Shown: positions 47,250 through 48,034 of the stretch, piece after piece
How the letters are laid out: every line of letters begins with the position of its first letter
How positions within the stretch are numbered: position 1 is the first letter of the stretch
Assembly (NCBI RefSeq): GCF_000027125.1
Contig: NC_017626.1
Source of the DNA: Escherichia coli 042
GTDB lineage: Bacteria; Pseudomonadota; Gammaproteobacteria; Enterobacterales; Enterobacteriaceae
Direction: 5' to 3' (one strand)
Length of the DNA stretch: 64,000 nucleotides
Position numbers and translations under genes: made by a program
Notes under the pieces: generated by a model
What the model was told of the DNA's origin: nothing
The model's input: only the letters and a program-made list of their open reading frames with translations
Databases searched by the model: none

Positions 47250-47744
47250 CTATTTAAGACATTCCTGCAAATCAGCCAATGTTGCCATCAGTATCATAGA
47301 ATCGACAGGCGATGGTTCAAACCCCACTCGCAGATAAAACTCACGGGCCTGGTCTGATAACGCATGGACCAACATTCCGCGAATACCAATGACTTCAGCC
47401 GCCTGTAGTACTCGTAGACCGGCATCTCTGACCATCGCACGACCGATGCCCTGACCCTGTAATGATTTATCTATTGCCAGACGACCAAGTACTACAACAG
47501 GGATCGGTTCTGGCATATTTCGGCGAAATCGTCCTGTCGCGACATACGTTTCAACGGCGCTGGAAGCAAGCGAATAATATGCCAAAACGTTGCTATACGT
47601 ATCACAGCTAACAAATGTACGTGATGCGCCGGCAAGCTGATTTTTTAGGGCTCTCTGCTTTAGCCAGTTATCCATCGTTTCTACTCCCGAGCAAAAAGAG
47701 GTGAATTGATGCCTTGCCATGAGTGGCTCGGGGGCCTGAATCAT
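47250..47744 (-). CDS. GNAT-family acetyltransferase toxin (TacT/AtaT/KacT-like) of a type II toxin–antitoxin pair
   Basis: 164 aa from [14 protein letters not shown]. Acetyl-CoA-binding motif [16 protein letters not shown]. The start ATG overlaps the upstream antitoxin stop as ATGA. The ORF-track alternative start at 47759 is 5 codons longer. Confidence 0.8.
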
Positions 47745-48034
47745 TTTTTTTGCTCCCACGGCGCGGGTGTTTGCATGGTTTTGCGTAATGCAGCATTGGG
47801 CGCGGGGGGCTGATCCAGACGATTCAAAAATAGCTGGTAATCATCAGAATCGATCCTGAAAATTCTCTGCTCAATGAGCGCCTCTTCAGCTGCGGCTCTG
47901 GCGGCCTCAAGGACAAATTCGGTGCGATTTTTTCCTCGGGCTTTAGCGGCCCGGTCAATAAGATCGCGTTCTGCGGGTTTTATGCGCAAATTTAAAGATT
48001 CGCGCCTGGTTGGAATGTTATTGGCTGCTGGCAT
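47741..48034 (-). CDS. DUF1778 / ribbon-helix-helix antitoxin (TacA/AtaR-like)
   Basis: 97 aa from [53 protein letters not shown]; AAGGAT Shine-Dalgarno 8 bp upstream; directly precedes and overlaps the GNAT toxin. Confidence 0.78.

Follow-up and report, generated by a model that had tools for sequence, protein, structure and literature searches.

The GNAT toxins characterised so far in E. coli are AtaT, AtaT2 and ItaT, each of which is paired with a DUF1778 antitoxin and acetylates aminoacyl-tRNA. AtaT and ItaT show a broad specificity and belong to other clades than the Salmonella toxin TacT2; for TacT2 and the other clade D toxins tested, Gly-tRNAGly is almost the only substrate in vivo (PMC9177977). 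The Klebsiella toxin KacT2 (clade 2) is reported to be 88% identical to TacT2 (PMC9431474). The TacA antitoxins of Salmonella have been reported to be unable to cross-neutralise non-cognate TacT toxins. Here we describe a gene pair of this kind, located between flgL and rne in a stretch of 64,000 nucleotides from E. coli 042 (GCF_000027125.1, contig NC_017626.1), hereafter the window, to which all positions refer. The pair is none of AtaT, AtaT2 and ItaT with their partners, but an uncharacterised member of the TacAT family. It very likely represents a chromosomal type II toxin-antitoxin operon of the GNAT/ribbon-helix-helix (TacAT) family, TacAT2/KacAT2 sub-clade, that works as the other members of the family do.

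The gene pair and its closest relatives

The module consists of two genes on the minus strand, flanked by flgL and rne; both genes were defined from the open reading frames and the raw sequence, and the ribosome-binding site was read from the sequence:

47741..48034, minus strand (ATG at 48034, stop ending at 47741): tacA-like antitoxin gene, 97 amino acids (aa)
47250..47744, minus strand (ATG at 47744, stop ending at 47250): tacT-like GNAT toxin gene, 164 aa (MIQAPEPL...)
48042..48046, minus strand: AAGGA, ribosome-binding site 7 nt ahead of the antitoxin ATG
46203-47156, plus strand: flgL
51352-48167, minus strand: rne

The stop codon of the antitoxin gene and the start codon of the toxin gene share the four bases ATGA at 47744-47741 (AAAAAAATGATTCAGG in the raw sequence), and a ribosome-binding site for the toxin, GGGAG, can be read within the 3' end of the antitoxin gene. 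Such a site inside the upstream gene is the usual layout for translational coupling, which suggests that tacA and tacT are probably coupled via the overlap. In the mechanical list of open reading frames both proteins appear with a longer N-terminus (112 aa for the antitoxin and 169 aa for the toxin). The shorter starts are the correct ones, since RefSeq uses both on identical DNA and since the N-termini of the Salmonella and Klebsiella homologues (MPAAN... and MI(S/Q)APEPL...) agree with them; the 112-aa start would, in addition, sit within the predicted promoter. The module is thus an intact two-gene tacAT-type pair. The initial annotation had read it correctly, both in the sizes, positions and ATGA overlap of the two minus-strand genes and in the acetyl-CoA motif of the toxin, which covers residues 86-101 and holds the GNAT motif A Q-x-x-G-x-G (Q96-G97-Q98-G99-I100-G101).

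The antitoxin matches the Pfam family TacA1 (PF08681; residues 14-88, E 1.5e-26). Its N-terminal part is a ribbon-helix-helix/DUF1778 DNA-binding domain, and its C-terminal part presumably neutralises the toxin. For the toxin Pfam recognises generic GNAT domains (Acetyltransf_7/10/1, residues 65-145), and the solved structures are more specific. All 15 PDB matches of the toxin at E <= 0.01 bear acetyltransferase names, and those that can be attributed are GNAT toxins:

7AK7_A: TacT2-type, E 7.7e-76
5FVJ, 7AK8, 7F36: TacT (7AK8 and 7F36 with the same aligned sequence as 5FVJ), E about 1e-44
5ZGN: KacT (depositors' name), E 4e-20
6AJM, 6GTS: named only 'N-acetyltransferase', E about 1e-16
6G96: TacT3, E 2e-15

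The two entries 6AJM and 6GTS we take to be AtaT structures; no sign of an ItaT structure was found among the toxin's matches at this threshold. The best match, 7AK7, contains two toxin chains and four antitoxin chains, and the best PDB match of the antitoxin (7AK7 chain C, E 1.2e-45) is the partner chain in that same crystal. The 7AK7 sequence is near-identical to a Salmonella pair located beside rtsAB (our locus L054), and its residue numbering fits that of TacT2 (R88, Y137 and residue 29). We take 7AK7 to be TacAT2, with Grabe et al. 2021 as its probable source. A first assumption, that the entry represents TacAT3, was abandoned; 5FVJ has been published as TacT and 6G96 as TacT3 (PMC5959882), and the latter is the weakest PDB match of the toxin.

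Pairwise comparison places the module within the family. The toxin is 75% identical to the Salmonella TacT2-type protein (121/161 positions, gapless), 75% to a Klebsiella KacT2-type protein and 51% to TacT, and the antitoxin is 81% identical to the Salmonella TacA2-type protein (79/97). Judged by sequence, the module belongs to the TacAT2/KacAT2 sub-clade, as its high identity to TacT2/TacA2 clearly exceeds what is seen with the remaining Tac, Ata and Kac toxins. Assignment to the GNAT/ribbon-helix-helix (TacAT-type) type II toxin-antitoxin family is supported by all of the defining features that can be tested on sequence. The initial annotation had proposed this aminoacyl-tRNA-acetylating toxin family, and the homology searches place both proteins firmly within it; a relationship to a non-toxin GNAT family, which would have spoken against the proposal, was searched for, and the attributable structure matches are GNAT toxins. 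Its wording "TacAT/AtaRT-like" can be retained for TacAT, narrowed to TacAT2/KacAT2, but not for AtaRT, to which the resemblance is distant (E about 1e-16 for the toxin and about 6e-5 for the antitoxin).

The gene organisation of the Salmonella TacA2-TacT2 pair is alike, with a 97-aa antitoxin gene overlapping that of a 163-164-aa GNAT toxin, a similar promoter layout and a member of the same family of 19-bp motifs (see below). The Salmonella pair lies beside rtsAB and fimbrial genes, whereas the E. coli pair lies between flgL and rne. Given the different genomic site and the saturation of synonymous sites between the two, the Salmonella and E. coli modules are old xenologues rather than positional orthologues. 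The KacAT2 module of Klebsiella pneumoniae has a promoter/operator region almost identical to that of Salmonella; the Klebsiella homologue adjoins the backbone of an integrative element of the SPI-7 (Salmonella pathogenicity island 7) type, whereas mobile elements are lacking next to the E. coli module. Salmonella TacAT (TacT; 5FVJ, 7AK8) shares family and fold with the E. coli module at the 51% identity given above, but forms a separate sub-clade. To the E. coli systems AtaRT, AtaRT2 and ItaRT, which share the GNAT toxin, the DUF1778 antitoxin and the acetylation of aminoacyl-tRNA, the relation is only remote. In addition, the flgL-rne site is empty in O157, the source of both AtaT and AtaT2.

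The residues on which toxicity depends are conserved. An ungapped alignment with the Salmonella toxin shows that K29, R88 and Y137 (TacT2 numbering) are all kept. In TacT2, toxicity is abolished by Y137F and by R88G, and the natural E29 of S. Typhimurium TacT2 is attenuated compared to the K29 of S. Enteritidis; TacT has the equivalent stabilising lysine (K31) and the catalytic tyrosine (PMC5959882). Compared with the Salmonella genes by the Nei-Gojobori method, the proportion of nonsynonymous differences (pN) is 0.16 for the toxin and 0.11 for the antitoxin, while the synonymous sites are saturated (proportion of synonymous differences, pS, about 0.8). Both genes are thus under strong purifying selection relative to Salmonella. 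The Klebsiella toxin was left out of this estimate on account of a one-codon indel.

RefSeq names the products of identical genes 'type II toxin-antitoxin system TacA family antitoxin' (in the newer records) and 'GNAT family N-acetyltransferase'. The pair is thus already annotated; it is also common (12.6% of the complete E. coli genomes) and of an ordinary, well-studied kind.

A predicted promoter and a candidate operator

Upstream of the antitoxin gene two elements overlap, a promoter predicted by a consensus scan and an operator-like motif:

48066..48095, minus strand: predicted sigma-70 promoter, ATGACA (48095-48090), 18-nt spacer, TATAAT (48071-48066)
48080..48098, minus strand: GTAATGACATTAGCGTTAC, operator-like motif of 19 bp whose outer arms are GTAA/TTAC; overlaps the -35 box

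The predicted promoter matches 11 of the 12 consensus positions, and about 30 nt separate it from the antitoxin start downstream, a position that is kept in Salmonella and Klebsiella. The counterpart of the motif in these two genera is GTAATGACATCTGCGTTAC. All E. coli variants compared have the same arms, and the bases that flank the arms co-vary (T...A in E. coli versus C...G in Salmonella and Klebsiella), such that the palindrome is extended in both.

To what extent the motif is shared was surveyed in 49 distant homologous loci, 47 of them usable, that were retrieved from species-representative genomes with exact peptide patterns as query. Salmonella escaped this type of scan, as did E. coli, the representative genome of which is presumably without the module, and no Escherichia outgroups were among the genomes returned. 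The 49 loci derive from Alpha-, Beta- and Gammaproteobacteria and from the Bryobacterales, and in all but one the toxin is 46-71% identical to that of the window. The pattern GTAn[T/C]GAC-N7-[A/C/T]TAC is present in 32 of the 47 usable loci, at 318-374 nt before the start codon of the toxin gene (in one locus at 460 nt), a distance that puts the motif in the antitoxin promoter. Elsewhere in the surveyed loci it occurs only four times in 663 kb, both strands counted. The consensus for the clade is a near-perfect palindrome, GTAATGAC-N3-GTCATTAC, with the variant GTA(G/C)TGACAATGACACTAC. The comparison provides good evidence that the conserved motif would act as an operator. Presumably it is the site that TacA binds for autorepression, and it may serve as the operator of the whole TacA2-like sub-clade.

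An allele between two terminators and its distribution

The strain-variable part of the locus was delimited by alignment with three strains in which the site is empty, and it lies between two terminator hairpins, identified by a terminator scan, that it has in common with those strains:

47233..48114, no strand assigned: strain-variable segment, 882 bp
47198..47226, plus strand (stem and T-run end at 47232): flgL terminator hairpin, retained, left border
48125..48148, minus strand: rne terminator hairpin, retained, right border

A flgL-rne spacer without any annotated gene is found in JM83 (a K-12 derivative, 195 bp), in an O157 strain and in the B2 probiotic A0 34/86 (about 195 bp), in agreement with the statement, in the initial annotation, that K-12 has no genes at this position. 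The window and the empty-site strains share the first 76 bp after flgL and the last 52 bp before rne; between these, where the latter have an unrelated spacer of the K-12/O157 type of about 66 bp, the window has its 882 bp. The region is therefore strain-variable, as had been proposed, but a plain insertion it is not, as the 882-bp allele replaces other sequence. No direct or inverted repeats were found at the borders of the segment, and no insertion sequence (IS) element, integrase, recombinase or other mobility gene in the segment or its neighbourhood, for which reason transposition and site-specific integration were rejected and allelic replacement preferred. The G+C content of the segment is 48%, that of the window 50.5%.

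Among 5,426 complete E. coli genomes, 685 (12.6%) carry the module, each of them once and on the chromosome, and in all carrier loci inspected it is located between flgL and rne. Among the carriers are O127:H6 E2348/69 (of the prototype lineage of enteropathogenic E. coli), APEC O2-211 and a clinical isolate of sequence type 648 (ST648). A match of any extent was obtained in 686 records, and in 681 of these the identity within the matched part is 99% or more. In the public assemblies, 13,628 indexed blocks contain the exact toxin protein, and the order rne-tacA-tacT-flgL-flgK was observed in 10 of the 10 places shown.

Between five carriers, compared pairwise, the segment is less diverged than its surroundings:

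882-bp segment: 0-0.9%
flgK and flgL: 0.4-3.6%
rne: 0.7-1.8%

The contrast is clearest between the window and LI60C3, with two differences in the 882 bp of the segment and 34 in the 954 bp of flgL. Moreover, an identical FlgL (WP_001212764.1) is encoded by the carrier E2348/69 and the non-carrier A0 34/86. The low divergence of the segment together with the identical FlgL suggests that gain or loss, or exchange by homologous recombination, is younger than the divergence of the backgrounds. Recombination of this kind, via the core genes on either side, has probably carried the module from one E. coli lineage to another.

The background of the window itself (44500-52500) is unrepresented among the 5,426 complete genomes, the best 8-kb match being 99.3% identical, and ten public assemblies with the exact toxin are 98.3-98.9% identical to the window over 5.5 kb. 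Despite these diverged surroundings many strains have exactly the same 882-bp segment (100% identity).

Several database records could be mistaken for plasmid-borne or decayed copies. No plasmid copy of the segment was found in the set of 5,426 complete E. coli genomes, and a plasmid-borne module was rejected, as the two 100% matches in the plasmid collection, of 730 kb and 4.9 Mb, are plainly mislabelled pieces of chromosome. A plasmid origin by way of Klebsiella or Salmonella 'plasmid' matches was likewise discarded, since those records are chromosome-like or chimeric. TacAT2-like modules occur in the plasmid-collection records of Salmonella sp. pPJT1-452kb (L054), CP088669.1, NZ_CP141089.1 and CP125156.1, all of them mislabelled or chimeric; they measure up to 5.4 Mb or hold chromosomal islands (rtsAB and fimbrial genes in an IncHI2 record), so that a plasmid origin deduced from them would be misleading. 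An apparent decayed remnant in HS-02 (locus L056, NZ_CP172818.1, 1665-2230; 20% coverage) was dismissed as an assembly artefact consisting of homopolymer-rich nonsense; the long runs of T, A, G and C nevertheless align column for column, and RefSeq carries the region as a partial GNAT pseudogene. In the ST648 record (locus L058, NZ_CP008697.1) both the toxin gene, with an extra T in a T-run, and flgL are annotated as frameshifted, which is probably due to sequencing error rather than to real inactivation.

Outside the locus, the window contains a 1.43-kb IS3-family insertion sequence between rluC and yceF (52933-54364). It is 99.9% identical to elements that RefSeq names 'IS3-like element IS1397 family transposase', has a 4-base target repeat at both ends, and its site is empty in the four other carriers compared. 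IS1397 is known for inserting into the palindromic units of repetitive extragenic palindromes and bacterial interspersed mosaic elements (REP/BIME). A scan with Rfam at the gathering threshold gave the following matches, all of which look like ordinary features of the core genome:

2201-2394: Ysr251
3769-3853: tRNA
9453-9544: ES056
19639-19681: ES036 (CssrF)
28812-28861: PyrC leader
51377-51713: rne 5' untranslated region element
55010-55178: SraB

SraB is shifted by about 1.4 kb relative to other strains on account of the IS1397 insertion.

Proposed function and its alternatives

From homology we infer that the one protein is toxic and the other neutralises it, and likewise the tRNA target, the binding to DNA and the biological role. 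The toxin would take the acetyl group of acetyl-CoA and attach it to a charged tRNA, at the alpha-amine of the amino acid that this tRNA carries. The acetylated aminoacyl-tRNA would be barred from peptide-bond formation, such that translation and growth stop, a block that peptidyl-tRNA hydrolase could undo. The 97-aa antitoxin would inactivate the toxin by direct binding via its C-terminal part, and it would repress the operon by placing its N-terminal ribbon-helix-helix domain on the 19-bp palindrome at the -35 box. Between the terminators of flgL and rne, the 882-bp module as a whole is an alternative allele. With TacT2 as the guide, Gly-tRNAGly appears to be the somewhat favoured target of the toxin.

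A number of observations weigh against this proposal or parts of it. The in vivo target is extrapolated from TacT2, which differs from the toxin in 25% of its sequence, and the specificities of GNAT toxins have been found to differ between in vitro and in vivo conditions. The right arm of the E. coli motif, AGCGTTAC, is degenerate compared to the clade consensus (GTCATTAC/GACACTAC), so that the strength of binding at this site is uncertain. The terminator scan found no intrinsic terminator for the tacAT operon on the minus strand. A search of the literature by locus, protein accession and phylogroup returned no paper on the E. coli flgL-rne copy. Finally, the curated NCBIfam models returned no family for either protein, so the TacA name in RefSeq must rest on another rule, and PADLOC gives no defence-system match for either; these last two results neither support nor contradict the assignment.

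The same biochemistry could serve another purpose. For the TacAT modules of Salmonella, stress-induced growth arrest or persistence has been proposed; a role in abortive-infection phage defence or in addiction instead is conceivable for the E. coli module, though rather unlikely. The patchy occurrence across lineages combined with the low diversity (0-0.9%, compared to 1-3.5% in the flanks) would fit a selfish or frequency-dependent accessory element, the identical FlgL of E2348/69 and A0 34/86 points to a recent gain or loss, and the Klebsiella homologue adjoins the backbone of an integrative element. Set against this are the lack of a match to the PADLOC defence models, the absence of defence genes or a prophage adjoining the module in the window, and the persistence phenotypes that have been reported for the Salmonella homologue (PMC5959882). 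None of these points is decisive in either direction. It is less probable still that the pair is an intact-looking remnant, attenuated or silent, with a toxin that is too weak or too tightly repressed. An intact reading frame is indeed no guarantee of activity, as a single substitution leaves the TacT2 of S. Typhimurium nearly non-toxic (PMC5959882), and one record, that of ST648, annotates the toxin as frameshifted. In the toxin described here, however, the attenuating residue is absent and K29, R88 and Y137 are kept, both genes are under strong purifying selection, in nearly all matching records (681 of 686) the identity within the matched part is 99% or more, and the ST648 record has a frameshifted flgL as well, which suggests a sequencing error.

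That the GNAT protein is an ordinary acetyltransferase of small molecules or proteins, under the control of an adjacent ribbon-helix-helix repressor, appears highly improbable. The GNAT superfamily is huge, Pfam sees only its generic domains, and the RefSeq name says no more than 'GNAT family N-acetyltransferase'; yet every structure match that can be attributed is a GNAT toxin (75% identity for the best of them), the neighbouring gene encodes an antitoxin of the TacA family that matches best to the cognate chain in that crystal, and the residues critical for toxicity are conserved. We consider it improbable, too, that the placement of the module is not neutral or that the toxin has a specificity other than Gly-tRNAGly. 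With regard to placement, the -35 box of the module lies about 30 nt beyond the rne terminator, and read-through from rne could in this way couple tacAT expression to the autoregulation of RNase E. On the other side the operon ends 17 nt (47233-47249) from the flgL hairpin, which has no T-run in the tacAT direction; as the operon has no recognisable terminator of its own, antisense transcription into the 3' end of flgL is possible, and tacAT transcription could dampen the expression of the flagellar hook-filament junction (flgL) in carriers.

Read as a TacAT2/KacAT2-type operon, the module would be the fourth GNAT/ribbon-helix-helix toxin-antitoxin system in E. coli, beside AtaRT, AtaRT2 and ItaRT. 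The practical value of this is modest, and no new kind of biology is opened by it. The conserved 19-bp motif offers a testable operator for the TacA2-like clade in several classes of the Proteobacteria and some Acidobacteria. Furthermore, the module represents a natural presence/absence polymorphism at a fixed site of the core genome, which would make it a handy system for testing what a chromosomal TacAT does for its host, be it persistence, phage defence or nothing.

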